This document shows positions 5,099-20,160 of a stretch of DNA of 64,000 bases, in pieces (positions within the stretch are counted from its first letter, which is position 1; each line of letters opens with the position of its first letter). The DNA lies in IMG/VR virus record IMGVR_UViG_3300005326_000040, positions 64,001 through 128,000 of that record; one strand, written 5' to 3'. Source of the stretch: a virus (Duplodnaviria; Caudoviricetes). Under the pieces are notes generated by a model. It saw only the letters and a list, made by a program, of their open reading frames with translations. It was not told the DNA's origin and did no database searches. A program made the translations under genes and the position numbers.

Positions 5099-5116
5099 CG
5101 CTTCCTCCTACTCCCC

Positions 5117-5145
5117 ACCCTACACTACCAAATCCCCTATGTCAA
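5117..5145 (-). promoter_or_regulatory. Sigma70-type promoter for the leftward operon
   Basis: Minus strand TTGACA-17 nt-TAGGGT, with TG upstream of the -10. Confidence 0.6.
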
Positions 5146-5188
5146 TCTACGGCCAATTTCCCTTTTTTAAACTCCGGAGCAAAGCCAG

Positions 5189-5362
5189 CAAAATAAATCT
5201 TCCCAAAAAAACACTTAATAACTTAACTTAAACTTAAACCTTAACCCCAAATTTTATTTATACCATTTCCTATATACACCCAAACCCCAATAAAATTTAA
5301 ATCCACCCCCTTCCCCTTCTCTTTATACACCCTATACCATATACACTATACACTCTCTCTTA
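5189..5362. other. 174-nt tract with no G on the plus strand
   Basis: Direct reading: last G 5188, next G 5363. Confidence 0.95.
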
Positions 5363-5414
5363 GAGAATACTCTCTTAGATAATATACACACACATACTAT
5401 CGCCGTACCGGCCC

Positions 5415-5640
5415 CTGGTTAATTACTTGGGTTTACCACTGGTGCCCTCTGGTCAATTACTGGAGTTTGAAGATATTTATACCTGGAGTCGTCTGGTTAA
5501 TCACTGGAGTTTACTGCTAGTGCCTTCTGGTCAATTACTGGAGTTTGAAGATATTTATACCTGGAGTTTGGAGTTATTTATACCTGGAGTCGTCTGGTTA
5601 ATTACTGGAGTTTGCTGGTCTGTAATTTCTGGATATTATG
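5415..5640. repeat. Array of CTGG(A/T) units, mostly 10-14 bp apart, including an exact 42-nt direct repeat
   Basis: TCTGGTCAATTACTGGAGTTTGAAGATATTTATACCTGGAGT at 5448-5489 and 5526-5567; recurring CTGGTTAATTA / CTGGAGTTT units. Confidence 0.9.
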
Positions 5641-5813
5641 GATTACAGTGACACTGTTACTTTTCGTAAAAACTTATGCTACAACGTTAAAAATTACCCC
5701 AAATATACATCAATAATAACAATGACTTACGAAGGTGTTAGTTTTTAGATGTTTTGATTTGGTTTAAAGTGGTGGAGAGTGGGGATAAATGGGTTGTGAT
5801 ATCCTTTTGACGT

Positions 5814-5853
5814 GGGCCGGGCGCCGGGGCCGCCAGGGGGCCTAGGGGGTGGG
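5814..5853 (+). other. G-quadruplex-compatible G-run cluster
   Basis: GGGccGGGcgccGGGGccgccaGGGGGcctaGGGGGtGGG: six G3+ tracts, loops 1-6 nt. Confidence 0.55.
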
Positions 5854-5917
5854 CCTAGTGTCACGTCACGCGCTGTGATGCCATCTAGTGTGATGCAACG
5901 TCGTATAGTGTAACGTA

Positions 5918-6017
5918 GCGCAGTGACCATATATTGCACTATATCGTCACTCGGTCTGCGGTGTCGTGTAGCGTAGCGTAGGCCAGCGCAGTGACCATAT
6001 ATTGCACTATATGGTCA
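5918..6017. repeat. Two copies of a 27-nt palindrome-forming element
   Basis: GCGCAGTGACCATATATTGCACTATAT at 5918-5944 and 5986-6012; second copy folds TGACCATATA-ttgcac-TATATGGTCA. Confidence 0.85.
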
Positions 6018-6040
6018 AACCGCCTAACCCTGCCGTTACC

Positions 6041-6068
6041 TTTTGCGCGACGCTTCCCATGGTATCAT
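6041..6068 (+). promoter_or_regulatory. Possible extended -10 promoter for the rightward unit
   Basis: TG-G-TATCAT at 6060-6068; -35 weak. Confidence 0.4.
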
Positions 6069-6074
6069 TAAAGT

Positions 6075-6345
6075 ATAAGGTAATGGTTCGGGGGATAATC
6101 CCCTTCCGAAACCTTATGGTTCCCCGATGTTTCCCCTAACGTTATCCAGGGGTTACTAGTGGGTTCTCCGGGCGTTCTAGAGCGCTGGCAATAAACCAGT
6201 AAGGAACCGATCTGCCCCTAGTTAGGGGTTATTAGGGTTCCGAGAACAACCTAACGGCGCAAAGCCTGGGGAATCTAACGGTAACCTTTGGGCAATCAAA
6301 GGGAAACCAAAAGCCTGACCCAGCAGGATAACTGGGATTCCACGG
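6075..6345 (+). ncRNA. Structured leader / ncRNA candidate, homologous to 10070-10340
   Basis: Four co-linear shared motifs and several hairpins (see findings). Confidence 0.55.
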
Positions 6346-6353
6346 AGTTTACA

Positions 6354-7055
6354 ATGTCGTTCGCCAAGTCGTTCGCCGCTCGCGTTCTCTCCGCTGCTTC
6401 CGCTCAGCAGACCGCTCCGGCTCCGCAGGTTGCTCCGGTTGCCCAGGCCGCTCCGGCAATTCCGGGAACCGCTGCTCCGGTCATCCCTGGAATGGCGCCT
6501 TCGGTTCCGGTGGCGCCCCAGGCCACCGTCACGCTGGAAGCCATCAGGGCGGTCGTTGCGTCGGCTTACCCGACGCTCAACGCCGGACAGCACGACGCCA
6601 TCACCACCAACATCGCTCGGCTGACCGGGTTGCCGGTCACCGGGGCTCCGCCGAAGAACCTCGGCGGCTACGCCGCCGCAGCGGCGTTCGTCCTCAAGTC
6701 CATCCCTGGCGGGCTGGAGTTGCTCCAGGCCCAGGAGAAGAAGGGGTTGGGAAAGCGCGTGACCGACTTCCACACGGGCGTCACCGTCTGGAAGCAGGCT
6801 GATGTGCTTCGCCACGATGCTGAGACTGGGCTGGTCGTGCAGGGAAAGGAAGGGAACGCCTATCGGTCGGTGACCTTCACCGATGGCAGGGACAAGTCTG
6901 GGCAAACGCTGCGCAAGGCTCTCGTGAGTGCCCTGGCTCCCAAGGGAGCCGTCGAGACGTTGTTGGCGGCTCTGTGCCTCGCCCGGTCGTTTGGCATCAC
7001 CGATGAGATGATCCAGGAACTCGTCACCCGCAGCGCCGCCATCATGTCCAAGTAG
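6354..7055 (+). CDS. Ala/Pro-rich N-terminus protein, paralog of 46750-47583
   Basis: ATG 6354 after GGAG; EAIRAVVASAYPTL vs EAIATVVKATYPTL; strongly GC-biased codons. Confidence 0.85.
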   Translation: MSFAKSFAARVLSAASAQQTAPAPQVAPVAQAAPAIPGTAAPVIPGMAPSVPVAPQATVTLEAIRAVVASAYPTLNAGQHDAITTNIARLTGLPVTGAPPKNLGGYAAAAAFVLKSIPGGLELLQAQEKKGLGKRVTDFHTGVTVWKQADVLRHDAETGLVVQGKEGNAYRSVTFTDGRDKSGQTLRKALVSALAPKGAVETLLAALCLARSFGITDEMIQELVTRSAAIMSK

Positions 7056-7074
7056 TTCCCTTCTACGTACCCAC

Positions 7075-7136
7075 CTATTCGCCCCTGGTACTGACCCTCA
7101 AAGGGTTGGTGCCAGGGGCACCCTTTTACCCGTTAA
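7075..7136 (+). repeat. Intergenic hairpin R0 (divergent family member)
   Basis: GCCCCTGGTACTGACCC / GGGTTGGTGCCAGGGGC stem, then GTTAA. Confidence 0.6.
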
Positions 7137-7255
7137 AGCCCCTGTAGTTCAAGGGGTTTTAACCACTACCCCTGCGGGGGATTGGAGGGACGACTCAAGG
7201 TGAGTCATGCTCCCTCATTGGGATTCAATAGGGTGTAAACCCGCAGGAGATTACC

Positions 7256-7903
7256 ATGAATAGTTCGATTACCCGCAAGGCTTTCATCGCGATGCTCAAT
7301 ACGTTCGTTCGTCAGATGGAAGGCGTCATTGACGCCTGGAACGCCATTGAACGGATGAACCATATCTGCGCCGACGTTGAGGCGCAGATCTTCAGCAACA
7401 ATAGTGACCGCTACCACGACGGTAGCGTGACCACAACTGATTACAACATCCTTCTGCGAGGGCAGAAGGTGGGGTACGTTCGGGTGCGGGAAACTCACGA
7501 ATATCGGGAGGAAAGGGAGGTCTTTGTCTCCTTCACCGAGCTTTCCCCTCGCGAATGGCGGGAGCGGAAGGCTTCACAGCGGGCTGCGGCCCGCCGTCAT
7601 CAGGAGGCGTACGACGCCTCCCGTGAAGTCGTCGCTGCCGCCCTGGCGGCGGGGCAGTCCGTCCGTGTCCAAGATGGACAGAAAGGGGGGGTTTTCGTGA
7701 TTGGCGACCACAGGGTCGCCGCTGTGCGGCTTCTCACCTCGGCGTATTTCGGTTTCTCTGAGGAAGAGGCGAATCGTCGCCTCGGGGAGGCTTGGTACAA
7801 GGGTAGTGACAGTTGGGGGGGATTCACATTCACCCTCAACCCCGAGTTGGCACATCGCCAGTTCGGTCGTCCTACCAGCATCGAATGGGAGATGACGGCC
7901 TGA
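7256..7903 (+). CDS. Hypothetical protein (215 aa)
   Basis: GCAGGAG-attacc-ATG start. Confidence 0.85.
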   Translation: MNSSITRKAFIAMLNTFVRQMEGVIDAWNAIERMNHICADVEAQIFSNNSDRYHDGSVTTTDYNILLRGQKVGYVRVRETHEYREEREVFVSFTELSPREWRERKASQRAAARRHQEAYDASREVVAAALAAGQSVRVQDGQKGGVFVIGDHRVAAVRLLTSAYFGFSEEEANRRLGEAWYKGSDSWGGFTFTLNPELAHRQFGRPTSIEWEMTA

Positions 7904-7919
7904 GGGCCTCTTTCCCAGT

Positions 7920-7980
7920 CGCCGATGTTTGCCCCTTTCTCAGCCTTCGGCTGGGGGAGGGGCGTTCTTTCGGCGGTTAA
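7920..7980 (+). repeat. Intergenic hairpin R1
   Basis: CGCCGA-tgttt-GCCCCT...cagccTTCggctg...AGGGGC-gttctt-TCGGCG-GTTAA. Confidence 0.9.
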
Positions 7981-8105
7981 AAGCAACCGCCTCTGAGGGG
8001 CGGTATACAAGTACCCTGACGTGAACGAAGGCTTTCCCTACCTTTGGTGAATACCCTATGGGGTAAAGGGGAGACGGTAACATTATCCCACCGACAAGCG
8101 GATAT

Positions 8106-8173
8106 GTAGCACAATGTGGAACCTAATGAGTTATTGGCATTAGGGATGGGTTCGATTCCCATATGTGCTGCCG
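8106..8173 (+). ncRNA. D-armless tRNA-like RNA
   Basis: GTAGCACA/TGTGCTGC acceptor, CCTAATG/CATTAGG arm with 9-nt loop, ATGGG-TTCGATT-CCCAT T-arm; no CCA. Confidence 0.5.
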
Positions 8174-8256
8174 AGTGAAGATAATTCTTTCATTCGATTG
8201 TGGAGCATTCACAAGTAACAGGGTGTGAGTGGATTGAATCTCCAATCCAACTCTAA

Positions 8257-8363
8257 CTGGGTTTAGCTCAAGGGTAGAGCAACTTATGTTTCAAGGTCCT
8301 TCCTAACCAGCGGGACACCGAAACATAGGGATATATCGAGTTCAAGTCTCGATAGCCCAGCCA
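8257..8363 (+). ncRNA. tRNA-like RNA with a greatly enlarged anticodon arm, ends CCA
   Basis: CTGGGTT/AGCCCAG-CCA acceptor, GCTC-AAGGGTA-GAGC D-arm, ATCGAG-TTCAAGT-CTCGAT T-arm; 10-bp stem CTTATGTTTC/GAAACATAGG enclosing 27 nt. Confidence 0.75.
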
Positions 8364-8479
8364 AGTTAGTTGTCCTTTTCCTCTTCGGGGGATTAGCCCA
8401 TAGGGACGTGGGCACACCAGCCGTTATGTGGACGGTTGGAATGATTGTTGGGGTAATCCCCGTTGAAGGAGAATGAATC

Positions 8480-8755
8480 ATGGCACGTCGTAATGCTGCT
8501 CGTCGGGCTCGCAATTCAAAGAGGTCTGCCCTCGTGACTGCCGCTATTCAGATGGCTTGCAATGCGGGCTCCGGGCTTCAACTCTTCGTCGGAGCCTCCG
8601 TCGAGGAGTGTGAGCATGATTACGCGAAGAGCCTCGGTGCGGAAGCTGCAAGGCTCCGCTCGGGGCTCTTGGGATACGGGCTCAATATGGCGGCATTCCG
8701 CCATGAACCGCCCGTCGTTCAAGACTACGTGAGGAACTACATCCTCCTCGCATAG
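8480..8755 (+). CDS. Hypothetical protein
   Basis: AAGGAG SD; followed by hairpin R2. Confidence 0.8.
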   Translation: MARRNAARRARNSKRSALVTAAIQMACNAGSGLQLFVGASVEECEHDYAKSLGAEAARLRSGLLGYGLNMAAFRHEPPVVQDYVRNYILLA

Positions 8756-8760
8756 TTTTG

Positions 8761-8823
8761 CCGCCGACGTTTGCCCCTGTATCGGCCTTCGGGCCGGTAT
8801 GGGGGCGTTCTTTCGGCGGTTAA
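8761..8823 (+). repeat. Intergenic hairpin R2
   Basis: CCGCCGA...GCCCC...ggccTTCGggcc...GGGGC-gttctt-TCGGCGG-TTAA. Confidence 0.9.
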
Positions 8824-8867
8824 CAAGCTCCAGTGGGGTAACCAGTCCCCCATGAAAGGATATTACC

Positions 8868-9086
8868 ATGTACAAGTCCAATTCATTCGGCTCTCTCGGC
8901 GCGTCCCTTGGCGTGGCGAAGGTGCGGGAGCTTTCCCGCGCACTTCATGTCGCCGACTCCCGCCGTGAGGCGGCGAATGTGCAGAAGCTCATCGAGGCGA
9001 AAGCCTCTGAGATGCGTCGTTCGCTGAAGAATCCCGAGAGCTATGCTCTCGTGATCAATGCCCTCAAGAAGGAGGGCAAGCTGTAG
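8868..9086 (+). CDS. Small basic hypothetical protein
   Basis: AAAGGA-tattacc-ATG. Confidence 0.8.
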   Translation: MYKSNSFGSLGASLGVAKVRELSRALHVADSRREAANVQKLIEAKASEMRRSLKNPESYALVINALKKEGKL

Positions 9087-9095
9087 AGCGGGATT

Positions 9096-9158
9096 CCGCC
9101 GATGTTTGCCCCTGCTTTGGCCTTCGGGCCATTGTGGGGGCGTTCTTTCGGCGGTTAA
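9096..9158 (+). repeat. Intergenic hairpin R3
   Basis: Same consensus. Confidence 0.9.
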
Positions 9159-9170
9159 AGGAGGCGCAAT

Positions 9171-9458
9171 ATGAGTGCGCTCGAACGCAAGAAGGCCGCG
9201 AAGCTGGAAGCGCGGCGAAAGAAGTGTATTCTCTACGAGACAGCCAAGAAGGTTGTCTATAGCGCTGGCACTAAACAGGTGTCAGCAATGGTAAGCCGTC
9301 CGATGGCTTGCCCTCACTCGGACTTCACATACGACTTGTGGGAAGTCGTTGTTTTCAACAGCGACAATTCCACCTGTCGTGCCAGTTGCTATCTTCCAAA
9401 GGAGGAGGCTCTTGCTCTTGCTCGTAATTGGGCAATTGAGTTTGGAGCCATTCTTTGA
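9171..9458 (+). CDS. Hypothetical protein
   Basis: AAGGAGG SD directly after R3. Confidence 0.8.
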   Translation: MSALERKKAAKLEARRKKCILYETAKKVVYSAGTKQVSAMVSRPMACPHSDFTYDLWEVVVFNSDNSTCRASCYLPKEEALALARNWAIEFGAIL

Positions 9459-9461
9459 TAC

Positions 9462-9525
9462 CCGCCGATGTTCGCCCCTTTCTCAGCCATTCTGGCTGGG
9501 GGAGGGGCCTTCTATCGGCGGTTAA
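9462..9525 (+). repeat. Intergenic hairpin R4
   Basis: Same consensus with compensatory changes. Confidence 0.9.
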
Positions 9526-9528
9526 GAA

Positions 9529-9666
9529 TGCCAGATATCGTCCCCACTTCCTTTTCCCGCAAGGATTAGGGGGTCAAGTTGAAGAAGGACAAACCGGGAT
9601 GAACAATCCTGGAGGGACGGAGAGCTTTCGAGTTCTCAGGTGGTTCAATTCCATCATCTGGCACCA
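9529..9666 (+). ncRNA. 138-nt tRNA-like RNA: 8-bp acceptor, T-arm and CCA with a large inserted domain
   Basis: TGCCAGAT/ATCTGGCA-CCA; GGTGG-TTCAATT-CCATC; GAGAGC/GTTCTC hairpin; CGTCCC/GGGACG enclosing about 70 nt with sub-hairpins. Confidence 0.7.
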
Positions 9667-9762
9667 AAGCAAGTGTGTATCTTTAGGAGTTTGGGATTGT
9701 TTTTGCTCCGGAGTTCGGGAGCAAAGCATAATCATTCTCCTAAAGAACACAAAGGAGGAGAG

Positions 9763-9999
9763 ATGCTGACGAAAACGAATGCAAGAAGGTTGGTGGAGAT
9801 TGTTGCGCAGATAAAAGACTTGTCTGCCAAGAACGGCATGATCGATCAACGCCACGAAGATGTGGCGAAGATTCTGGGGACGTATAAGGAGGATGAATAT
9901 CCTTCTGAAGAAGACCCCGAGTGGCGCAAGAACAACGACGAGATTGGCAATCTCTACAACGAGCTTCTGTCCATCATCAACACAAGTCTCCCCCTGTAG
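9763..9999 (+). CDS. Hypothetical protein
   Basis: AAGGAGG SD, ATG 9763. Confidence 0.75.
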   Translation: MLTKTNARRLVEIVAQIKDLSAKNGMIDQRHEDVAKILGTYKEDEYPSEEDPEWRKNNDEIGNLYNELLSIINTSLPL

Positions 10000-10005
10000 A
10001 GACTT

Positions 10006-10067
10006 CCGCCGATTACCCGCCCCTTTTCAGCCTTCGGGCTGAGGAGGGGCGCCCTTTCGGCGGTTAA
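10006..10067 (+). repeat. Intergenic hairpin R5
   Basis: Same consensus. Confidence 0.9.
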
Positions 10068-10069
10068 AA

Positions 10070-10340
10070 GCTACACCCTATCCCAAGTATGTTCTCGTTC
10101 TCTCCATTATGGTATGGTTTTCAGTAGGGGGTAAAACATAAACCCCTTCTGGAAACTCTACCTCAACAATTCCCGATGTTTCTTTGTGTAGGGTTGTTGC
10201 CTACACGAGAGATAAAAGGATAGTTGATAGTATGACCCCCACCAAAGGGTCATTTATTAATGGGTAGAGGGTGAGAACAAACCTGGAGTGGAATTATCGA
10301 ATCGCCTGATAGGCGGCCTGGGGGCGGAACAACAACTCGG
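10070..10340 (+). ncRNA. Structured intergenic RNA, homologous to 6075-6345
   Basis: Shared co-linear motifs; GTGTAGG/CCTACAC and TGACCC/GGGTCA hairpins. Confidence 0.55.
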
Positions 10341-10343
10341 AGA

Positions 10344-10886
10344 ATGATCATGAAGACGACTTCCAAGATGAACGCGCTTCTGAATGCGGCCTGTGACCAT
10401 GCGAAGGCGCGTGGTCGTTTCCCCATGTACTTGGACCCGGTTAGGTTCGAGTTTGACGGGGACAGTGACTGTTACTTCGCCGCAAGAGCGAGGGACTTCA
10501 CGTTCTCCAAAGGGGCCGCAGCGATCATTGGTGCCGACATGATCGTCACCATGTTCGCGGGGGAGGAGCAGTGGGGAATGTTCTTCTCTACTCGTGAGTT
10601 GCTTGACCCCGAAACGCTCAAGTGGCTCAAGGATTCCGACCACTTGTTGGAAGACGAGTGGAAAGCAGCGGAGTCCTTGGCGAAGAAGGCCGAGCAACTC
10701 GCCTCTCAGGCGCGAGTTTCGGCCTTGAAGGCTCGTGAAGCGAGCCTCAGTGCCAACGACTTCCAGGTGGTCATGGTGGAGATTGAGCGAAAGCCCATCT
10801 TCGCCGCGCTGCCTGAGACAGTGGAAGTTCATCCCGTCTTCAGTCAGATCAACCGAGAGGTTGATTTCGATTGCAACTGGGATTGA
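10344..10886 (+). CDS. Hypothetical protein
   Basis: GGAG SD, GC-biased codons. Confidence 0.85.
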   Translation: MIMKTTSKMNALLNAACDHAKARGRFPMYLDPVRFEFDGDSDCYFAARARDFTFSKGAAAIIGADMIVTMFAGEEQWGMFFSTRELLDPETLKWLKDSDHLLEDEWKAAESLAKKAEQLASQARVSALKAREASLSANDFQVVMVEIERKPIFAALPETVEVHPVFSQINREVDFDCNWD

Positions 10887-10896
10887 ACCTGTTTCT

Positions 10897-10961
10897 CCGC
10901 CGATTGTTTGCCCCTGCTTTCGCCTTTCGAGGCGATTGAGGGGCATTCTTTCGGCGGTTAA
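10897..10961 (+). repeat. Intergenic hairpin R6
   Basis: Same consensus. Confidence 0.9.
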
Positions 10962-10983
10962 CAAGCAACCACTGGAGGCTGCT

Positions 10984-11232
10984 ATGAAGAAGCTGTGGTT
11001 TTGGGTGCATAGTGCGCCCACGGGGTTCGTCAAGGATGCTGATCGTCATGTTGTTGTGATGGCGATTGCTACCGAGGACGAGATTTATGGCCCTGGTATC
11101 GGTCTCGACAACTGGCACGAGACTGGTATCGAGGGCACTCTTGATGGTTGCCTCGCGACCCTCAAGAAGAATCATCCATGCGTCAACATGGAGACAATCC
11201 TCGGCGGCTGTTTGGGTTACGCCGTCGAATAA
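10984..11232 (+). CDS. Hypothetical protein
   Basis: GGAGG SD, ATG 10984. Confidence 0.75.
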   Translation: MKKLWFWVHSAPTGFVKDADRHVVVMAIATEDEIYGPGIGLDNWHETGIEGTLDGCLATLKKNHPCVNMETILGGCLGYAVE

Positions 11233-11234
11233 TA

Positions 11235-11545
11235 GTGGCTGATAAGTTGCTATCAAGAAAGGGCAGGAACGTATAGGAGTAACAATCCTAGTTCGAGTCT
11301 CCCCATAGGAAAGATAGGGCAAAGCCCACGTTGGACAATCTTTCCGCAGGTTTAGGCGAGCCAACCTATGGATGACTATAAACGGTTATAAGGCTCAGGG
11401 TCCAATGTTACTAGGTTAGGAAGGAGACCCAATGTAACGATAGCGGGTCTGGAGACAACTGAATAGCCCACCCTTCGGCAAGGTGGGCAATCTTAAGGGT
11501 ATGACTATTATGGTTGTATCCTTAAGATTGCCCAATTAGCCCCAA
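11235..11545 (+). ncRNA. About 310-nt structured intergenic RNA candidate with a pseudoknot
   Basis: CCATAGG/CCTATGG and GTTGG/CCAAC helices; crossing GTTAC/GTAAC and AGACCC/GGGTCT; 14-bp perfect inverted repeat 11485-11498/11520-11533. Confidence 0.55.
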
Positions 11546-11568
11546 CATATACCTGAGAGGAAAGAGTC

Positions 11569-11925
11569 ATGATCAAGGTGTGTTTCAACGAAGTGCCTGC
11601 CAATGTGGCGCAGTTCGTGGCGAAGAACATCCAGTCGGCGCAAATCGTGCGAGCGGCACGACCGGCGCCGATTGCGGCAGGAATGAAGCATTCGCCCAAT
11701 GTCATTGGAGGACGCCGTTACGGCAAGTACTCCAGGGGCGATAAGAACCGTAACCTCCGTAAGTCGGTGACGACCTATGGAGGACACACCTTCAAAGAGT
11801 TGATGGTGTTGATGGGCAACTCCGTGCCGATCAGCCAACTTCTCGCCATGAAGGAGACGAGGGAGTATTACGTCGGTGTTCGTCACGAATCGTGGAAGAA
11901 GTTCCGCGACCATCAGTGGAGGTAG
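11569..11925 (+). CDS. Basic hypothetical protein
   Basis: GAGG SD. Confidence 0.8.
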   Translation: MIKVCFNEVPANVAQFVAKNIQSAQIVRAARPAPIAAGMKHSPNVIGGRRYGKYSRGDKNRNLRKSVTTYGGHTFKELMVLMGNSVPISQLLAMKETREYYVGVRHESWKKFRDHQWR

Positions 11926-11929
11926 TTCG

Positions 11930-12106
11930 ATGGAAAGGTATCAGTGGGAAGCCTTGGCGGAGACGTTGTTGATGCTCTCTCGTGCTCAGACCATGAGCGG
12001 TTTGAATTACGAACGGGTTCGACAGTTCGTCCGTGGAGAGAGGCCGCTGTCGCGGCGAATTCGCCGGTCGATCAACATCCTCTCCAGAACCGTATTCGAT
12101 AAGTAG
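11930..12106 (+). CDS. Small Arg-rich protein
   Basis: GGAGG SD, ATG 11930. Confidence 0.7.
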   Translation: MERYQWEALAETLLMLSRAQTMSGLNYERVRQFVRGERPLSRRIRRSINILSRTVFDK

Positions 12107-12167
12107 TTCTGTTCGCCCCTGCTTTGGCCCTTCGGGGCCATTGTGGGGGCGATTCATTGGCAGTTAA
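12107..12167 (+). repeat. Intergenic hairpin R7
   Basis: TTCGCCCCT...ggcccTTCGgggcc...GGGGGCGA...GTTAA; outer stem decayed. Confidence 0.8.
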
Positions 12168-12178
12168 GGAGAGGTCCA

Positions 12179-12346
12179 ATGGAGAAGCTTCTTCAAGTGA
12201 TGAGGTCGAGGAAGTGCTCCTATACGGAGTACATTGAATTGAGGCTCGCCGTATTGGCCGACATCGGCAAGGGCGGCGACGAACTGGTAGCAAAAATCTT
12301 TCGGGGGTTGGGGATTCCGATTCCTGTGGACCCTCGTTACAACTAG
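12179..12346 (+). CDS. Small hypothetical protein
   Basis: AAGGAG SD after R7. Confidence 0.7.
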   Translation: MEKLLQVMRSRKCSYTEYIELRLAVLADIGKGGDELVAKIFRGLGIPIPVDPRYN

Positions 12347-12378
12347 GGTTCCTTCTCGCCGAAAGAAAGGAACACGTC

Positions 12379-12678
12379 ATGCTCTTTGAAGTGCGACCGC
12401 CGAATTCAATGAAGAACGTCATGGTGACGTTTGAATCGAGTACTCGGCGGGAAACAGCTGCCGCAAATGCTGCTGTTGAATCAGTTCTCAAAGATGAGGA
12501 CTTGCAGCCTTTTCATCAGATGGGCTGTGACCCTTTCTACGGGAACGACGCTCCCGGCATTCATGGTTGGGAAATCTGGGTTGACGGGGAGAACATTGCG
12601 CGGGTGGCGGCGCTTCTTCCAAAGATCCAGACCATCTACGAGAAGGAGTATATCCTTCGGGACTGGATGGAGGATTGA
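12379..12678 (+). CDS. Hypothetical protein
   Basis: AAGGA SD. Confidence 0.8.
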   Translation: MLFEVRPPNSMKNVMVTFESSTRRETAAANAAVESVLKDEDLQPFHQMGCDPFYGNDAPGIHGWEIWVDGENIARVAALLPKIQTIYEKEYILRDWMED

Positions 12679-12710
12679 ATTGGCAGGTTCGATTCCTATC
12701 CGTTCGGCCA
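12663..12710 (+). ncRNA. Possible tRNA minihelix or 3' tRNA remnant
   Basis: GCAGG-TTCGATT-CCTAT (one mismatch) then CCGTTCGG-CCA; weak GU-rich partner CTGGATGG overlaps the upstream gene end. Confidence 0.3.
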
Positions 12711-12726
12711 AGGAAGGAGATGAATC

Positions 12727-13038
12727 ATGAAGGTTCGTATGATGATTCTGGTTGATGGACAGTATCGTTGGGTCGATAGCAAATTCAAAAGCAGCTTGGA
12801 AGCTGCTCAGGAGGTGAGTATTCCCTATATCGCTGGTGCATCTCGTGGTGAGGAGGGGTGCATCGAAGTCACTGGCAACAAGGTGACTTTCGTCGGCTAT
12901 CCCGTCAACGTTCTTATCAGTGAGGATGAGAACCCGATCACCATGGTCATGTCTGTGAGGGAGCAGAACATGGTCAAGGAGTCGTATCCTTGCACGCCCG
13001 AAGAAGTCAACGAGATGAGGGCCGCCAACAAGGAATAA
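12727..13038 (+). CDS. Hypothetical protein, paralog of 22215-22526
   Basis: LVDG..RWVDS.F...GEEGCIEV.G..V.F..(Y/F)P. Confidence 0.85.
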   Translation: MKVRMMILVDGQYRWVDSKFKSSLEAAQEVSIPYIAGASRGEEGCIEVTGNKVTFVGYPVNVLISEDENPITMVMSVREQNMVKESYPCTPEEVNEMRAANKE

Positions 13039-13042
13039 CCGT

Positions 13043-13204
13043 ATGGAGCAATACGTTCACGACTTCGGCATCATCTGGCAAGTGATGTGTAAGACCTACA
13101 TTGCCCACATTCTTTTTGTGTGGGTGATGGTGGTGTTCACAGTTGAGAAGTGGCAGGAGTATCAGGAGGCCAGGGTGATGGTTCTCCGAAAGCTCCATAA
13201 GTAA
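13043..13204 (+). CDS. Small membrane protein (53 aa, not in track)
   Basis: MEQYVHDFGIIWQVMCKTYIAHILFVWVMVVFTVEKW...; AAGGA SD. Confidence 0.65.
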   Translation: MEQYVHDFGIIWQVMCKTYIAHILFVWVMVVFTVEKWQEYQEARVMVLRKLHK

Positions 13205-13217
13205 GGGAGAAGAGAGA

Positions 13218-13520
13218 ATGAAGAAGGTTGTGTTCGCATTCATCCTCGCCGCTATCGTTAGTGGTTGTGCCAAACCGGAGCCGAAGGTTCCTGTTGTTTC
13301 CCAGCAGCCCCAAGTGGCGCGGGTCATCTATACCGAGAAGGATTCTCCTCTCGACTATACAATCCGCGCCGAACAGGCTGTGATCGAAGGGGGTAGGACG
13401 GCGAAGCAGGCTGCCAGTCAGGCATATGATTGGGCAGCAAAGGAAGCGGAGGAGTTGGCCGACAAGGCGCGACGCGCCAAGAAGGCGGCCAAGGAAAAGA
13501 TTCACGAGATGACGGAGTGA
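13218..13520 (+). CDS. Predicted lipoprotein
   Basis: MKKVVFAFILAAIVSGC lipobox. Confidence 0.8.
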   Translation: MKKVVFAFILAAIVSGCAKPEPKVPVVSQQPQVARVIYTEKDSPLDYTIRAEQAVIEGGRTAKQAASQAYDWAAKEAEELADKARRAKKAAKEKIHEMTE

Positions 13521-13534
13521 CGTAGTGACGTAGT

Positions 13535-13597
13535 GGATGGTGTTCGCCCGTTATTCGGCTATAGAGCCGGGTGACGGGCGATGCTGTTTTCTTTTAA
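13535..13597 (+). repeat. Intergenic hairpin R8 (subfamily B), possibly terminator-like
   Basis: TCGCCCGTTA-TTCGGCT-atag-AGCCGGG-TGACGGGCGA-tgctgttttcttTTAA. Confidence 0.85.
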
Positions 13598-13624
13598 CGA
13601 GAGCCTTTCCCAAGGAGAAGTAAG

Positions 13625-13801
13625 ATGAGCAAGAACGAACTGATCGCGTTGGGGCTGGAAGCGCATGAAGTCGATTACATCGCCGAAGCGGTCGCCAAGA
13701 ATGGCGAAGTACTCGGCGACATCGTGCATGTGGACTTCTGCGTCAGCCCCAGGAGCGTTGGCGTGGAAACGGTGAATGAGGCGTACGACCTGGGACTGTG
13801 A
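13625..13801 (+). CDS. Small hypothetical protein (58 aa, not in track)
   Basis: AAGGAG SD; MSKNELIALGLEAHEVDYIAEAV... Confidence 0.7.
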   Translation: MSKNELIALGLEAHEVDYIAEAVAKNGEVLGDIVHVDFCVSPRSVGVETVNEAYDLGL

Positions 13802-13809
13802 GGTTCGTC

Positions 13810-14784
13810 ATGGGGTTAAATGAAGTCATCAATGGGCTGAAGCAGGGCAAGTCCTTCGAAAGGGCAGGGACGAGCACTGGTGGTGGGAAATATGTGGAAA
13901 AACTGATTGCTGTGAGTGCAATCTACTTCAAGCATCAGATCGTTGGCGCCATGAGTGGTCATGGTTGGGGAGGGTCGAGCCAGTTGGAGATCAATATCCT
14001 CAACAACGGTCGCTGGGACGAAGATGGATGGAAGGAGATTGCACCAGCCAGAGGTGAACAGTCATAAGTGGAGCAAACGATGACAACGATTATCGTTAAC
14101 ATATCGGATGACCTTTCCCTTGCAGATCGTGCCTACACGGTGGACGATTTGCAATTCTTGCTGAGTGATGCCTTGCGGTCTCACGGGATTGGCTGTCACC
14201 TTACGGTGCTCCCAACCGAGACAGACGAGCAACGGATCATTCAGATCATCCAAGAAAGCAAAAGTGTTTTGCACGCCATCAAAAGCGTACGAAGCACTTT
14301 TGGGTTTGATCTGCTCACCTCCAAGAGAATCGTGGAAGACCTTATCGCCAAAGGTACAACTGTGGGCGGGAAGTTGTAGAGGGAGGACACCATGCCAGCA
14401 GTGAGTCGTAAAGAAATCGATCATGAGCGTGAAGTTGACGCTCAACTCAAAACGGACCTTTGTAACCTTGCATGGTACGGGTCCGACAATCCTGAGGTTG
14501 TCAAACGAGCGGAGGCCAAGGAACGTGAGTGGAGCGAGAAGCACTATCGCTCTTTCATGGACGACCAGTTGGAGAGTCTTCGTTGTACTCTGCACAAAGA
14601 GATGATGGAAGACTTGTTGGATGACGATTTGGAAGCCTGTCAAGACAGGAGGGCAACTTCCAGGGACATCAGCGATGACCCTTACGACGCTCTGGACTTC
14701 CACGAGCCTTCGCCGTATGTCGAACAGGAGCCGGACTACGAGTCGGCGGCCGAAGAGTTCGCAGATTACGACGAGTACGATTGA
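13810..14784 (+). other. Three hypothetical CDSs
   Basis: 13810-14067, 14068-14379, 14392-14784 (acidic C-terminus). Confidence 0.75.
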
Positions 14785-14795
14785 AGGGAGGAGAT

Positions 14796-15233
14796 ATGAT
14801 TCACATCTATACAAGCACTGTGGTTCCTCTCGCCACGGTGGAGAATCACGTCGGCTATATGGCTGACCTTAATCTGCTTGAAGACTACAGGTTGGTTCAT
14901 CTCGATCACACTGCTCCGCACAACTTTCAGGCGGAAGAAGCGGAGAAGGTGATTGAGAAGCACAAGGCCAAGCCGCGCTTCATCTACGCGGTTGCTTGTG
15001 TGATGGAACCGGCGATTCTCCGGATTCTTCGGAGGGTCAGGGAGGGCAAGCTTTCCCACGAAGATGTCAAGGTTTTCGTTCTCTCATACGACGCCAACGA
15101 AAAGGAGGAAGTTTGCGAGTGTCGAGTGGATGGCGATGGGGACTTCATTGACTCCTGGCCTGATGGGTTTTTCGAGGCATGTTCCAAAGAGTTGTTTGCG
15201 GAAGGGGATACTGATGGCACCACGAACGCCTGA
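14796..15233 (+). CDS. Stand-alone DUF3696-like protein (C-terminal module of ABC/AAA ATPases)
   Basis: AILRILRRVREGKLSHEDVKVF...CRVDGDGDFIDSWPDGFFE matches the recalled DUF3696 pattern; no Walker A. Confidence 0.6.
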   Translation: MIHIYTSTVVPLATVENHVGYMADLNLLEDYRLVHLDHTAPHNFQAEEAEKVIEKHKAKPRFIYAVACVMEPAILRILRRVREGKLSHEDVKVFVLSYDANEKEEVCECRVDGDGDFIDSWPDGFFEACSKELFAEGDTDGTTNA

Positions 15234-15855
15234 GAGCAATCGTAGGCCGCCGACGATTAGTGACAAGCAGTTGGTCAATCGTCGCATCCGAGTGGTCTAT
15301 CGGCGCCGCAGCATTGACTCCTATCACAACATCATCTATCACGATGATATCGAATGTGAGGGGGTTCTTCGGCTCAATCCTTCGGGATATGGGTTGACGG
15401 TGTTGACGGATGACGGTCGGTCGGTTGGGTACTTCCGCGCCGACTGTCCACTCCAACGCGACGAACCGATGCCCAGTGATTTCTCCCACATGAAGGGATA
15501 CGATGGGCACGCTGATTTGAGCTATGAGTTGACGCCGGTATCCGACGAAGTGATTCCGGTGGCGACACCGGAGAACGTCGGGGAACCGGCGAAGTCTCCG
15601 GTGATGTATTACCGAAGTGAGGCTCAAGGCGTTCTCAGGAACGACCTGAACAACACAGTCGTTGGTACGATGGAATCGTATCGAGTATGGGTCGTCACCC
15701 AGAATCAGTGGCTGGAGGTCACTGAAACAATTATGAAGATGTTGTATGGGTCGGAGAGTAATCTTCGGCGCTGGCATCCTCAGGGTGAAAAGGTTTCAAC
15801 GTTCTACGATCACTTCGAAAGGAACTTCCCTGGGGTATCCCTGGGACTTGCGTGA
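15214..15855 (+). CDS. Hypothetical protein
   Basis: ATG 15214 after AAGGGG. Confidence 0.8.
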   Translation: MAPRTPESNRRPPTISDKQLVNRRIRVVYRRRSIDSYHNIIYHDDIECEGVLRLNPSGYGLTVLTDDGRSVGYFRADCPLQRDEPMPSDFSHMKGYDGHADLSYELTPVSDEVIPVATPENVGEPAKSPVMYYRSEAQGVLRNDLNNTVVGTMESYRVWVVTQNQWLEVTETIMKMLYGSESNLRRWHPQGEKVSTFYDHFERNFPGVSLGLA

Positions 15856-15914
15856 GGGGTTGGTCGCCCGGTATCGTTCTTGGAACGGTATCGGGCGATG
15901 CTGTTTTTATTTAA
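15856..15914 (+). repeat. Intergenic hairpin R9 (subfamily B)
   Basis: TCGCCCGGTATCGTTC-ttg-GAACGGTATCGGGCGA-tgctgtttttatTTAA. Confidence 0.85.
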
Positions 15915-15933
15915 CGATACCAGGAGGATTACC

Positions 15934-16200
15934 ATGTGCATGTCGATTGACGACAAGGTTCCCTTCAAGTGGACGCCGCACGAGCAGGCTTCCCACGTTA
16001 TCATTGGATACTGTGCCAAGTGTGGAAGTGGCGGTATCATGATGACGGCGAAGAACGAACTGGAAGCCTACAGGATGAGGAAGTGGTATCGAGCCCACGG
16101 TTATCCGAAGGCTCGAATCGAACTGGACAATGAGGAGACCTCCAAGCAGGTTTCGGATGAGTTGACGGACCTCATCTGTTGGGAAGACTCTCACGTCTGA
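15934..16200 (+). CDS. Hypothetical protein with CxxC
   Basis: CAGGAGG-attacc-ATG. Confidence 0.75.
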   Translation: MCMSIDDKVPFKWTPHEQASHVIIGYCAKCGSGGIMMTAKNELEAYRMRKWYRAHGYPKARIELDNEETSKQVSDELTDLICWEDSHV

Positions 16201-16245
16201 GTCGGGATAACGCCGCAAAGAAATCCTTTTCAAAGGGAGAGAGTT

Positions 16246-16779
16246 ATGAACCAGAGCAACATGATTGCCATGGCTACGAGCCCTTCATCGTTCGACATGT
16301 TCAAGTTGACGGAGATTCTCGTCAACTGCGGAGGGACGATCTTCGGTGGGTTCGTGAGGGACATGGTGGCTGGGCAGTTGGACTTCGTGAGCGACATCGA
16401 CGTGAGTATGCGTCAGGAGTTCAAGCTCCAGTATCTCATGGCAAGGCTTATCAAAGAATACCAGCAAGTGCTGGTGTCGGCCTTGCCTGTGAAGAATTAC
16501 GGGAGAGGGAACCCCGACGGGTTCCGGTTGACTGTGGACGGTATTGATGTTGATATCGTTTGCGAGGCCGATCGAGGAATCCTTGACCTCGACGTGAATG
16601 GGCTCCTGTGGGACAATAATGGGTTGAGGTTGGATATCAGCCGATATCGTGTCAACGGGGACACCTTCGTTCAGTTGGTTCAACGGATTCAGCAGAAGCA
16701 GTTCCGTCGAATCGACGTTCCGCTGTGGCGGGAGAGGAAGGTGGCGAAGCTGAAGTCGATGGGGTGGACGGAAGTGTGA
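16246..16779 (+). CDS. Nucleotidyltransferase, tRNA-nucleotidyltransferase/poly(A) polymerase head domain only
   Basis: GGTIFGGFVRDM...SDIDV...DVDIV...DLDVNGL; 177 aa, lacks body/tail. Confidence 0.75.
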   Translation: MNQSNMIAMATSPSSFDMFKLTEILVNCGGTIFGGFVRDMVAGQLDFVSDIDVSMRQEFKLQYLMARLIKEYQQVLVSALPVKNYGRGNPDGFRLTVDGIDVDIVCEADRGILDLDVNGLLWDNNGLRLDISRYRVNGDTFVQLVQRIQQKQFRRIDVPLWRERKVAKLKSMGWTEV

Positions 16780-16785
16780 GGGTAG

Positions 16786-16848
16786 GGATGGTGTTCGCCC
16801 GTTATTCGGCTATAGAGCCGAGTGACGGGCGATGCTGTTTTCTTTTAA
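16786..16848 (+). repeat. Intergenic hairpin R10, near-identical to R8
   Basis: One substitution relative to 13535-13597. Confidence 0.9.
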
Positions 16849-16876
16849 TGAGGGCGTCATTGAAAGGACAAGAAGA

Positions 16877-17476
16877 ATGATCAAGACAATCAACAGCAAC
16901 ATCGTCAAGTGCTTCGACAGCTTCTGCGTTGGGACCAAGATCAAGAATGTCGAAGCGTTCTTGAGGCTGTTGGAAGCAGCCATCGAGAGTTTCGATTGGT
17001 CGTCCTGTAAGGCACCAGGGCAAGCCAAGATTCCGATGTCCACCGAAGCGTGTCAGCACGTTTACTCGGGGATTGGTTTGAAGACAGAGAACCCCAACGA
17101 TTACGTGATTCGTCAGTGGCGTGGTTCGGTAGCGATGTATCTCAAGAGGGAGCACGCCATTGCTTGTGATTCAGTGAAGGTCATTGTGTATACGAAGCAG
17201 GCGTATCTCGATGACCCGGATTGCAAGGGGAATCCTGAGAAGGGAATTATCGGGGACGAAGAGGAATACAATCGGGTAAGTCAGTCCGATTGTACACACG
17301 TTCTGATAGCGGTTCAGGCGGACGCTGGTCCGGAGAGTCCAGTTGCACCGGGGCGGTTCGTAGCGAACCTAGCCGGTGCGAACAATGAGTACGAGGCCAA
17401 AACCGCCGAGCAGCTTCAACAATTGGCGAGAGAGATTCGCGACTACTATGCGACGTATATGGTGGTTGCGGACTGA
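16877..17476 (+). CDS. Hypothetical protein (weak recalled resemblance to DUF3228)
   Basis: AAAGGA SD; VIVYTKQ...ESPVAPGRFVANLAG; CDS is solid, family call is weak. Confidence 0.7.
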   Translation: MIKTINSNIVKCFDSFCVGTKIKNVEAFLRLLEAAIESFDWSSCKAPGQAKIPMSTEACQHVYSGIGLKTENPNDYVIRQWRGSVAMYLKREHAIACDSVKVIVYTKQAYLDDPDCKGNPEKGIIGDEEEYNRVSQSDCTHVLIAVQADAGPESPVAPGRFVANLAGANNEYEAKTAEQLQQLAREIRDYYATYMVVAD

Positions 17477-17552
17477 CAAGTAACTTCTCGTTGGTTGTTT
17501 GAAGGGTAATTACCGGGAGATAATGTAATGAAGATTGGAATCTGAGCAGTAA

Positions 17553-17640
17553 GGCCCGCTGGTGGAAATGGTGAGACACACAGGATTTAAAATCCTGCGG
17601 CCGAAAGGTCATAAGGGTTCGACTCCCTTGCGGGCTACCA
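17553..17640 (+). tRNA. trnL: tRNA-Leu, anticodon TAA
   Basis: GGCCCGC/GCGGGCT acceptor, CAGGA-TTTAAAA-TCCTG anticodon arm, long variable arm, AAGGG-TTCGACT-CCCTT, ACCA end. Confidence 0.95.
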
Positions 17641-17660
17641 ATGGTTTGAAGGAGGTTTTT

Positions 17661-18017
17661 ATGGGGCGAAAGAAGAAGACGAAGGCTGATTACGAGGAGC
17701 TACCGTTTAGACTGGGTAATTCTAGACGCCTTCAAGTAGATGGAGTAGTAAAGAAGATGGCGCCTGGAAGATTGGACGAATGGAGGTGGGACCAATATGG
17801 TCGGTCGATAAAGGGGTTGGAATATTTTAACTTGCTTCATCAGGTTTGGGGTAGGATTGAAAGAATAACTCCAGTCCTTCACGTAGTCTACATATTCAAA
17901 GATGAAGTTACGTGGGGACGGCGAGAGTGTTGGGTAAAGCTGAAGAATGGTAAGATGGTAGAGTGGTCGAAGAAGGCGATAAGCTGGAAAGAATATCGCG
18001 AGACGCAGTATCGGTAG
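17661..18017 (+). CDS. Basic Trp-rich hypothetical protein
   Basis: AAGGAGG SD, ATG 17661. Confidence 0.8.
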   Translation: MGRKKKTKADYEELPFRLGNSRRLQVDGVVKKMAPGRLDEWRWDQYGRSIKGLEYFNLLHQVWGRIERITPVLHVVYIFKDEVTWGRRECWVKLKNGKMVEWSKKAISWKEYRETQYR

Positions 18018-18026
18018 TGATTGATG

Positions 18027-18105
18027 GGGCGATAAGGTATATGGGGATATCTATTAGAATGTAATAGATATCTTTTAGAAGGTTCAAATCCTTCTAGGCC
18101 CGCCA
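18027..18105 (+). ncRNA. Degenerate tRNA-like RNA, anticodon arm replaced by a perfect 11-bp hairpin, ends GCCA
   Basis: GATATCTATTA-gaatg-TAATAGATATC; AGAAGG-TTCAAAT-CCTTCT; GGGC/GCCC short acceptor. Confidence 0.6.
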
Positions 18106-18134
18106 ACGAATTGGGATTTGAAAGGAACGATGAG

Positions 18135-18476
18135 ATGCCGGTTCACAAGTGGAGTGAAATCAAGAATAAAATGGCGCCAGAACGTCAGGAGAGACTTCGC
18201 GCCGAAACTGACAAGCTGCTCACTGAGATTGAGAACAAGGTAACGGTGTGCAGTTTGCGTGAACTGCGTGAGATGGTTGGCAAGACTCAAGCTGAGGTTG
18301 GCAGCAGTCTTGGAATGACTCAATCTCAAGTCTCCAAGCTCGAACGGCGCAAGGACCATCTTCTTTCAACGATTCGGCGTTATGTTGAAGCGTTGGGAGG
18401 CGAGCTTCAAGTGAGTGTGATTATTGAGGGGAAAAGAATAACGTTGGTTGGAGGACAAAAGCTTCATCGAGAGTGA
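18135..18476 (+). CDS. XRE-family HTH protein, HigA antitoxin-like, no adjacent toxin
   Basis: WSEIKNKMAPERQER...LRELRE..GKTQAEVGSSLGMTQSQVSKLERR.DHLLSTIRRYVEALGGELQV. Confidence 0.85.
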   Translation: MPVHKWSEIKNKMAPERQERLRAETDKLLTEIENKVTVCSLRELREMVGKTQAEVGSSLGMTQSQVSKLERRKDHLLSTIRRYVEALGGELQVSVIIEGKRITLVGGQKLHRE

Positions 18477-18497
18477 AGCTTTGAAAGGAAAGCTGAG

Positions 18498-19863: not shown

Positions 19864-20160
19864 ATGCTAGTTGTAACGACACAATCGGGGCGATACATAG
19901 TGTTTGATGTCACTGAGTATCGACCTGGGATTCCTGTTCCACCAATCTATAACTTCTTCGCGGAGGGAGGAAAGAAACCTTTCTTCTATGAACCGCTTGA
20001 TTGGTTTCTTCGCGGTGAGAGGCCGTATCCGCCGCCATACAGCGCCTATCCGATGATGTTTTCCGAAGGATATGCGACGCAGGACGAGGCGCTGAGAGCG
20101 GCGGAAAAAACGGAAGCAATGAGAGATAGTTTGAGAGCAAAACTCTCTAGAAGGGAGTAA
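19864..20160 (+). CDS. Hypothetical protein, paralog of 21958-22218
   Basis: SGR.(I/V).FD...(F/W)F(Y/F).P.DW...GYA...EAL.AAE. Confidence 0.85.
   Translation: MLVVTTQSGRYIVFDVTEYRPGIPVPPIYNFFAEGGKKPFFYEPLDWFLRGERPYPPPYSAYPMMFSEGYATQDEALRAAEKTEAMRDSLRAKLSRRE

Follow-up and report, generated by a model that had tools for sequence, protein, structure and literature searches.

Eleven related hairpins follow the small genes of a rightward array

The window analysed here comprises bases 64001–128000 (64,000 nt) of a single 338,055-bp virus record (IMG/VR IMGVR_UViG_3300005326_000040), a genome estimated to be 97% complete. Both the GC skew and the open reading frames place a switch of coding strand at approximately 5.8–6.3 kb of the window, and from there rightward genes run to the window end. 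We called 24 small genes in this array (g1–g24, taken as open frames with ATG starts following a Shine-Dalgarno sequence), and the gaps between them contain the family of repeated RNA hairpins that is the subject of this report. The first 11 kb of the array are distinct in composition, with a GC content of 0.53 and a third-position value (GC3) of 0.67, compared with a GC content of 0.416 for the genome. Every gene of the block 6000–18000 has a GC3 of 0.55–0.79; composition is even over this block, with no differences from cassette to cassette, and GC content falls gradually downstream. A Pfam search of g1–g24 revealed no domain bearing on the hairpins. An all-against-all BLASTP of the 24 proteins found no paralogues, which rules out duplication of a gene together with its hairpin as the source of the repeats.

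An earlier note on this DNA had listed eleven related hairpins of approximately 60 nt. All eleven were found, between positions 7076 and 16848 and without exception on the plus strand (Table 1; coordinates are in window numbering, and each unit extends from the first conserved base to the A of TTAA). We distinguish type A (the eight copies R0–R7) from type B (R8–R10), and within type A the intact two-stem copies R1–R6. The layout described for R1–R6 is present in each: a 7-bp lower stem CCGCCGA/UCGGCGG, a pyrimidine-rich loop, a GCCCC/GGGGC clamp, a variable and mostly UUCG-capped apex, and a terminal TTAA. Their predicted folds consist of a 7–8-bp lower stem and a 16-bp upper stem around an internal loop of 4–6 x 5–6 nt. 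R0 and R7, which the note had taken for decayed copies, both indeed lack the lower stem. The proposed R8–R10 subfamily also holds, with R8 and R10 one base apart within the unit and 96% identical over 70 nt. Types A and B have in common a 5' box TGTTYGCCC, a GGGC clamp and a TTAA 13–14 nt past the stem. This TTAA (UUAA in the RNA) is invariant in all 11 copies at its fixed distance from the stem, and sequence conservation ends with it.

The placement of the hairpins just after stop codons is equally regular, every copy starting 2–20 nt past the stop of a called gene. The distance from the element to the next start codon is 11–499 nt. Because the stop distance is tight and the start distance variable, the element goes with the upstream cistron, at its 3' end. 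A translational operator for the downstream gene is ruled out by the same range of start distances. A function in stop-codon readthrough, or as a fail-safe stop, was also rejected, as only 2 of 7 type-A copies have the TAA of TTAA in the reading frame of the upstream gene. Type A occupies 8 of the first 10 gene junctions, and type B is found at three junctions in the tightly packed distal part of the array. All intergenic gaps of at least 72 nt hold a copy, with the exception of the g8–g9 gap, which has another structured stretch.

Structured RNAs, tRNA-like or other, lie directly downstream of R1, R4 and R5. The tRNA-like RNA that had been placed 4 nt after R4 was confirmed at 9530–9666, counting from the TTAA of R4. 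It is 137 nt long, with a 7-bp acceptor-like stem, a T arm, an encoded CCA and an expanded core, and folds with -57.6 kcal/mol (z -4.4). The non-coding RNA after R1 (7985–8171) begins with a small hairpin, the 5' arm of which could also pair with the 3' arm of the R1 lower stem.

Table 1 Position, structure, context and scores of the eleven hairpin elements. Folding energies are in kcal/mol, z values are relative to dinucleotide shuffles, and bits refer to the type-A covariance model.
Element	Coordinates	Strand	Type and structure	Context	Fold	z	Bits
R0	7076..7136	+	decayed type A; 18-bp hairpin 7081-7119, no lower stem, TTAA 7133-7136	starts 20 nt after g1 stop; TTAA runs into second 12-bp hairpin 7132-7163	-36.1	-6.7	45.3
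R1	7919..7980	+	type A; lower stem, internal loop, 16-bp upper stem, TTAA	15 nt after g2 stop	-41.5	-6.1	81.4
R2	8760..8823	+	type A	4 nt after g3 stop; g4 start 44 nt past TTAA	-46.3	-7.0	81.5
R3	9096..9158	+	type A	9 nt after g4 stop; g5 Shine-Dalgarno directly after TTAA, g5 start 12 nt past TTAA	-42.0	-6.8	84.2
R4	9461..9525	+	type A	2 nt after g5 stop; tRNA-like RNA begins 4 nt past TTAA	-46.3	-6.6	83.8
R5	10006..10067	+	type A, weak U tract	6 nt after g6 stop; followed by 280-nt non-coding leader	-45.1	-6.6	66.9
R6	10897..10961	+	type A	10 nt after g7 stop; g8 start 22 nt past TTAA	-42.0	-8.2	79.2
R7	12109..12167	+	decayed type A; end of g10 replaces 5' arm of lower stem	2 nt after g10 stop; g11 Shine-Dalgarno after TTAA, g11 start 11 nt past TTAA	-35.8	-4.9	55.8
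R8	13540..13597	+	type B; 20-bp stem, then at once U-rich tail ending TTAA; top terminator-like site in scan	19 nt after g15 stop	-32.2	-6.3	29.7
R9	15860..15914	+	type B, terminator-like; called in terminator scan	2-4 nt after g21 stop; g22 start 19 nt past TTAA	-29.2	-5.8	17.8
R10	16791..16848	+	type B; called in terminator scan	11 nt after stop of g23 (nucleotidyltransferase-like)	-33.2	-7.8	

Covariation and strand bias reveal selection on the mRNA-sense RNA

Each copy is predicted to fold with -29 to -46 kcal/mol and a z value of -4.9 to -8.2 relative to dinucleotide shuffles, none of 200 shuffles folding as well. With the upper stems aligned from their base, positions 1–4 are invariant and two-sided changes are seen at 10 of 14 positions, resulting in approximately eight distinct stem versions. 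The earlier claim of compensatory changes in the upper stems is borne out by counting: standard pairs occur in 86 of the 90 cells at positions 6–14, compared with 56.9 on average (sd 3.3) after redealing the 3' partners, and a value of 86 was reached in 0 of 5000 shuffles. Between two and five G.U pairs are present in 10 of the 11 copies, and the plus-strand RNA exceeds its complement in stability by 5–11 kcal/mol. With a covariance model trained on the eight type-A copies, scores are 45–84 bits on the plus strand versus 18–27 bits on the minus strand. The covariation, the G.U pairs with the associated strand stability, the strand bias of the model and the single orientation together demonstrate that selection acts on the mRNA-sense RNA.

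The hairpins are near-palindromes with sequence-conserved bases, and could in principle act at the level of the DNA, whether as operator, cruciform, replication or packaging signal or hairpin promoter. We consider this highly improbable. The elements occur in a single orientation and always just past a stop codon, their apex sequence varies freely, and no promoter-like hexamer pair is present; moreover, each of the G.U pairs (2–5 per copy) corresponds to a C.A mismatch on the other strand.

A genome-wide count using a covariance model had been suggested as a check in the earlier note. When run, it returned only the eleven elements in 338,055 bp, the type-A model recovering R8 and R10 with an E value of ~1e-4 and R9 with one of 0.04. 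No further member emerged from a regular-expression search of the genome or from folding sliding windows along both strands; outside the family there are only ordinary terminators and scattered hairpins. A structure at 20028–20100, closed by a long-range CCGCCGCC/GGCGGCGG stem and folding with -43 kcal/mol, has a weak model score of 19.7 bits on the minus strand; this could be a very remote relation of the hairpins or have no connection with them. A search of positions 5500–18500 against Rfam, using gathering and E-value thresholds, identified no family for the hairpins and no ribozyme. That the family of RNA stem-loops is real and specific to this genome is well supported. As types A and B have the 5' box, the GGGC clamp and the TTAA spacing in common, they can be read as one lineage of terminator-like hairpins.

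Terminator anatomy and a need for read-through

In anatomy R8–R10 are canonical intrinsic terminators: the 20-bp stem is immediately followed by 6 U in the first 8 nt, and they are the top terminator-like sites in our scan. The evident terminators elsewhere in the genome, an ordinary hairpin plus U-run, have the same anatomy. The earlier note had regarded termination as plausible only for these three, a restriction that does not hold, as a U-rich tract also follows the upper stem of R1–R4 and R6. Here 4–5 of 8 nt are U (5 in R1–R3 and R6), and the terminator scan also calls the upper stems of R1 and R2. By the d'Aubenton-Carafa formula, tail scores are ~2.9 for R1–R3 and R6 and 2.7–3.3 for type B. 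Overall, a G+C hairpin with a U tract within 0–2 nt is clear in R8–R10, weak in R1–R4 and R6, and absent in R0, R5 and R7. On the basis of the U-rich tract of R1–R4 and R6 and the core common to both types, termination or attenuation appears to be part of the picture for the whole family.

The elements must nonetheless be read through, since g5, g11 and g22 start 11–19 nt past an element, too close for a promoter to fit in between. The phage genome has one gene of the sigma-70 family, and a search of it found no beta subunit of a multisubunit RNA polymerase; it is therefore the host RNA polymerase that is expected to transcribe the phage. A search of the genome for a T7-like RNA polymerase (PF00940) gave no match either, a blank that is uninformative as the control genomes also lacked a match.

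Our proposal, to which we give a probability of about 0.5, is that the elements combine leaky termination (in type B, and weakly in type A) with protection of mRNA 3' ends between cistrons. The family would mark cistron 3' ends in the promoter-proximal, GC-rich part of the long rightward array of small genes. The ancestral unit would be a terminator-like hairpin, with a G+C clamp at the base, a paired but freely varying apex and a U-rich tail ending in UUAA. R8–R10 would have retained this form, and as leaky terminators would divide the array into transcription units. In R1–R6 a weakened U tract would be enclosed by the 7-bp lower stem, in which the sequence before the hairpin pairs with the sequence past the tract, and the 3' arm of this stem would be transcribed only upon read-through. 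Polymerase would mostly pass R1–R6, and the full 23–25-bp structure, at -42 to -46 kcal/mol, could then form in the polycistronic RNA.

However the 3' end arises, the hairpin is predicted to shield the upstream cistron from 3'-to-5' exonucleases. Such an end might result from partial termination within the U tract or from cleavage, either by RNase P or RNase Z at the tRNA-like RNAs next to it or by a different endonuclease in the UUAA/A-rich linker or in the hairpin itself. Once the structured RNAs after R1, R4 and R5 were excised, the new 3' end would carry the hairpin. How efficiently the elements terminate, whether they protect against decay and which nuclease may take part are matters of inference.

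REP-type 3' stabilisers (for example malE-malF) are intercistronic hairpins that protect the upstream message, and offer a parallel to the protective part of this proposal in being very stable, G+C-rich and read through while shielding the upstream message from 3' exonucleases. REPs differ in being host-genome repeats with a dedicated transposase family. The phage elements, by comparison, occur within only 10 kb, keep a conserved internal loop together with an invariant UUAA, and pass by degrees into true terminators.

Several observations weigh against leaky termination with 3'-end protection. The lower stem and internal loop are kept in sequence in R1–R6, although neither a plain exonuclease barrier nor a terminator needs them, and the invariant TTAA is not accounted for by the terminator/protector model. 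Together, the conservation of the R1–R6 base and the invariant TTAA suggest that the sequence itself is recognised. The U tracts of R0, R5 and R7 are poor (3–4 U in 8). In addition, the rules applied here to termination and decay are those of model bacteria and may differ in the host. The only public run listed as containing the region is of DNA, with no RNA run among those listed.

Distant relatives carry different genes and different hairpins

A megablast search of positions 7000–17000 against 50,697 phage records gave no match. The g2 and g7 proteins have no relative in viral contigs, and g2, searched among 5.8 billion proteins, finds only itself. DNA pattern scans, using either the 3' half or the whole two-stem pattern, yielded chance G+C-rich matches in viral contigs, none of them followed by TTAA; in metagenomes and genomes the same scans likewise gave, among the matches listed, chance G+C-rich ones only and none followed by TTAA. 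Homologues of g23 and g24 did lead to three sets of relative contigs: L262/L263, L264 and L267–L272.

The contigs L262/L263, from public Logan assemblies, encode a g24 homologue that is 65% identical. Upstream of it L262 has 12 small genes, none homologous to g1–g23, and the gaps between these small ORFans hold approximately 13 copies of a hairpin family of its own. These hairpins comprise a GC-rich outer stem, UGUUU, a conserved A+U-rich stem and a variable apex, and a run of 6–8 U follows three copies only. The two families thus occupy the same place upstream of the g24 homologue, have in common the GC-rich outer stem, the 5' UGUUU, a conserved base and a variable apex, and each mixes members with and without a U tail. 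In contrast, the L262/L263 stem is A+U-rich and continuous, lacking an internal loop, and its copies often occur in tandem pairs. Our type-A covariance model detected nothing in the relatives' loci, and a scan of viral contigs with the L262 motif gave single chance matches only. The L262/L263 family is apparently undescribed, and may share its descent with the hairpins of the window. A base sequence that is specific to each genome would fit with exchange among the copies, or with a trans factor that co-evolves with it.

The L267–L272 contigs have homologues of g13, g19, g21 and g23 (38–49% identity), in a different order. The non-coding RNA at 7985–8171 is 82% identical to L267 138–325 (also L268 1257–1444), which, compared with the 38–49% identity of the relative's proteins, points to strong constraint on this RNA. 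The homology starts 4 nt past the TTAA of R1. The genes upstream of this joint are unrelated between the window and L268, and L268 lacks a hairpin at the junction. A 50-nt leader with ribosome-binding site (window 8426–8476, L268 514–567) is 81% identical and precedes unrelated genes, g3 (91 aa) in the window and a 225-aa gene in L268, a sign of gene replacement behind a conserved non-coding joint. In this set of contigs the g23 homologue is followed by an unrelated 21-bp hairpin. Together, the L262/L263 and L267–L272 contigs show that the array is mosaic, with non-coding elements at the joints; one deep breakpoint, 4 nt past R1, adjoins a hairpin.

In the third set, L264:447–4392 (GC 0.66, g24 homologue 45% identical) repeats a 50-nt leader five or six times, each time immediately ahead of a start codon; the leader consists of GGTAAC, a short variable hairpin, GCGTGA and then AGGAGGACCGAGAACATG. 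It represents a different kind of repeated intergenic unit in a similar array.

Possible exchange of gene cassettes at the hairpins

The earlier note had offered the hairpins as possible recombination points for gene cassettes, and in its strongest form this would make them PeSL- or attC-like joints, kept mainly for moving ORFans in and out. The two sets of distant relatives lend indirect support. Genes between copies are unrelated ORFans without paralogy; 12 genes without a homologue in the window stand beside a separate hairpin family in L262; the hairpin base is common within a genome and different between genomes; gene order differs in L267–L272; and the homology of the window with L268 begins close to the end of R1, upstream of which the genes are unrelated and at which L268 has no hairpin. 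The region's DNA run, by contrast, supplied no joint: its contigs show neither joints nor variants in the region, and break at R8 and R10, as is expected for a 70-nt repeat. Between the near-identical L267 and L268 there is a single indel, an internal deletion that falls within a small gene rather than at a hairpin.

We consider it quite unlikely that recombination is what the repeats are kept for. Neither tyrosine nor serine recombinase nor Y1 HUH transposase was found in the genome; the profile for tyrosine recombinases (PF00589) has no match in this 97%-complete sequence, and gives control matches in 14 of 14 genomes. There is no target-site duplication, the G.U pairs and covariation indicate RNA rather than DNA, and GC3 is uniformly high in 24 of 24 genes, so that no compositional mosaic is apparent. 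Judging from the relatives, cassette exchange at the elements is plausible; it may well be a by-product of the repeats rather than their function.

Identity with the T4-type PeSLs, which the note had cited, could not be upheld. What defines a PeSL is a strong sigma-70 promoter coupled to a stem-loop terminator (PMC2839356, PMC4122927). The hairpins resemble them in that a repeated stem-loop rich in G and C runs lies between ORFans of a hyperplastic early region, in that the stem-loops act, or here would act, as terminators or attenuators, and in that the gene content between them varies among relatives (PMC2839356, PMC4122927); a stem-loop terminator between ORFans of a variable region is indeed what we observe. 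PeSLs, however, combine promoter and stem-loop over a conserved ~100 bp, and the unit here is 55–65 nt with no promoter. A promoter scan of 5000–18500, by a consensus that may not be that of the host, gave 10 sites versus 9.4 expected, and none of these lies in or next to an element, so that the sigma-70-like promoter that defines a PeSL is lacking.

Other mobile or recombining units were rejected on their sequence hallmarks. With two stems, an unpaired spacer and a variable tip the elements resemble a folded integron attC site, but the core and inverse-core boxes are absent: counting from the G before TTAA, none of 7 type-A copies has a 3' heptamer that fits GTTRRRY, the 5' side has neither an RYYYAAC inverse core nor an AAC box, and the TTAA is not part of the stem. 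A miniature inverted-repeat transposable element with TTAA target duplication is ruled out, as no copy has TTAA on the 5' side. An IS200/IS605 end or a REP/PATE element was also discounted, the Y1 HUH transposase profile PF01797 having no match in the genome and the repeat-pattern scans giving, among the matches listed, chance ones only.

RNase III or a dedicated factor as possible reader of the hairpin base

The earlier note had favoured a processing or stabilisation role. This fits the position, with mRNA-sense RNA structures at cistron 3' ends, and the T7-like outline of two stems and an internal loop is present. The elements might accordingly be T7-type processing signals, host RNase III recognising the coaxially stacked lower and upper stems of R1–R6; the internal loop would then confine the cut to one strand, and the upstream message would keep a protective 3' hairpin. 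Substrates of E. coli RNase III span approximately two helical turns, and loops limit cleavage to one strand, leaving protective 3' hairpins (PMC1540722, PMC3867540). In R1–R6 the lower stem, asymmetric internal loop and upper stem total 23–25 bp, or approximately two helical turns, with a sequence-conserved base and an apex that maintains pairing only. The hairpins of L262, as A+U-rich duplexes of 25–30 bp that mostly lack U tails, look like good double-stranded RNA substrates.

The early signals of T7 (R0.3, R0.5, R1, R1.1, R1.3) are similar in several respects. They too are intergenic in a polycistronic early region transcribed by host RNA polymerase, are ~60 nt with upper stem, internal loop and lower stem, occur in several copies per genome, and are expected to leave the upstream message with a protective 3' hairpin (PMC1540722). 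The hairpins of the window differ in an upper stem of 16 bp versus ~10, followed by a U-rich tract, and in that three of the copies are plain terminators.

A further difference concerns the pairs flanking the loop. In E. coli RNase III substrates, a GC or CG pair prevents binding when it stands at proximal-box position 2 and catalysis when it stands at position 4 (PMC1540722). The four pairs on each side of the loop are here G-C/C-G with the exception of one A-U and one U.G, and position 2 is C-G in 6 of 6 intact copies, making them antideterminants for the E. coli enzyme. Because the rule is from E. coli and may differ in the host, these pairs lower the claim of membership in the T7 type more than that of a similar mode of working. 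Moreover, the phage genome encodes no RNase III gene, and R0, R7 and R8–R10 lack the bipartite shape yet are clearly maintained. Taken together, T7-type processing by RNase III appears rather unlikely.

A variant of this mechanism is suggested by phage lambda. The lambda sib/tI retroregulator is a terminator nested in a longer RNase III hairpin. As in the elements, a terminator-like hairpin with its U tract lies inside a longer stem whose 3' arm is transcribed only on read-through, and terminated and read-through RNAs consequently differ in structure. By analogy, it is possible that only read-through transcripts, as the only ones to hold the 3' arm of the lower stem, are substrates. Lambda has one site and one gene, whereas six to eight copies lie here between unrelated genes, with no recognised antitermination system in the phage.

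Alternatively, the conserved base (lower stem, internal loop, G+C clamp and UUAA) could dock an RNA-binding protein or endonuclease, encoded by one of the phage ORFans, that cuts or regulates early RNA. A base conserved in sequence below an apex that is merely paired, and a UUAA at a fixed distance in 11 of 11 copies, would be expected of such a site; so would the genome-specific base sequence in L262, as predicted by co-evolution with a trans factor. The neighbourhood is also rich in RNA elements and includes the nucleotidyltransferase-like gene g23. However, none of the 20 neighbouring proteins scanned has a Pfam RNA-binding or nuclease domain, the region holds no ribozyme or known RNA family, and conservation of the base could equally stem from recent spread or gene conversion. 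A dedicated factor is thus an improbable explanation.

The product of g23 (window 16246–16779, 177 aa) matches the PHROG 1614 nucleotidyltransferase (E 6e-5), with a head motif GG-x-VRD ... DxD, and homologues of 42% identity are present in the JGI contigs L267–L272. It may represent a minimal enzyme for CCA addition, or one similar to poly(A) polymerase, within an RNA-rich early block. It is a speculative and doubtful extension that a genome-specific phage factor, the tRNA-like RNAs and this enzyme form a self-contained system for cutting and finishing early RNA. In such a system, site and factor would have co-evolved, giving L262 its differing base sequence.

Features upstream of the array and in its leaders

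Upstream of the array, four or five TACTGGAGTTTG-like iteron copies are found at 5500–5620, and a very G+C-rich patch lies at 5805–5860, ahead of the rightward genes. A 22-nt motif occurs twice (~5925–5950 and 5992–6017), the second copy forming an operator-like 10-bp inverted repeat around TTGCAC. The segment 5500–6050 may be a regulatory or origin region of divergent early units. The long 5' leaders at 6040–6345 and 10070–10340 have similar patches in common, and both contain, in the same sense, a copy of the 5' half of the family's hairpin (CCCGATGTTTC-like, at ~6124 and ~10165) without its 3' half.

Discussion

The hairpin family is a lineage-specific version of a device that T7, lambda and T4-type phages are known to have; most probably it serves to form and protect message ends, with leaky termination. 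A single hairpin lineage appears to have given rise, in one genome, to true terminators and to two-stem elements that are read through, and the relative L262 would have arrived at the same system with a different sequence, around entirely different genes. The structure of the RNA is backed by covariation, making the family a candidate for RNA family libraries.

Large uncultured phages have long arrays of tiny early genes, and the elements described here offer a clean, testable case of how such an array is expressed. If they set the ends and stability of messages, the expression units of the array would be defined, which would aid the annotation of such genomes. If the repeats are also points of exchange, they would help to explain the turnover of ORFan arrays.

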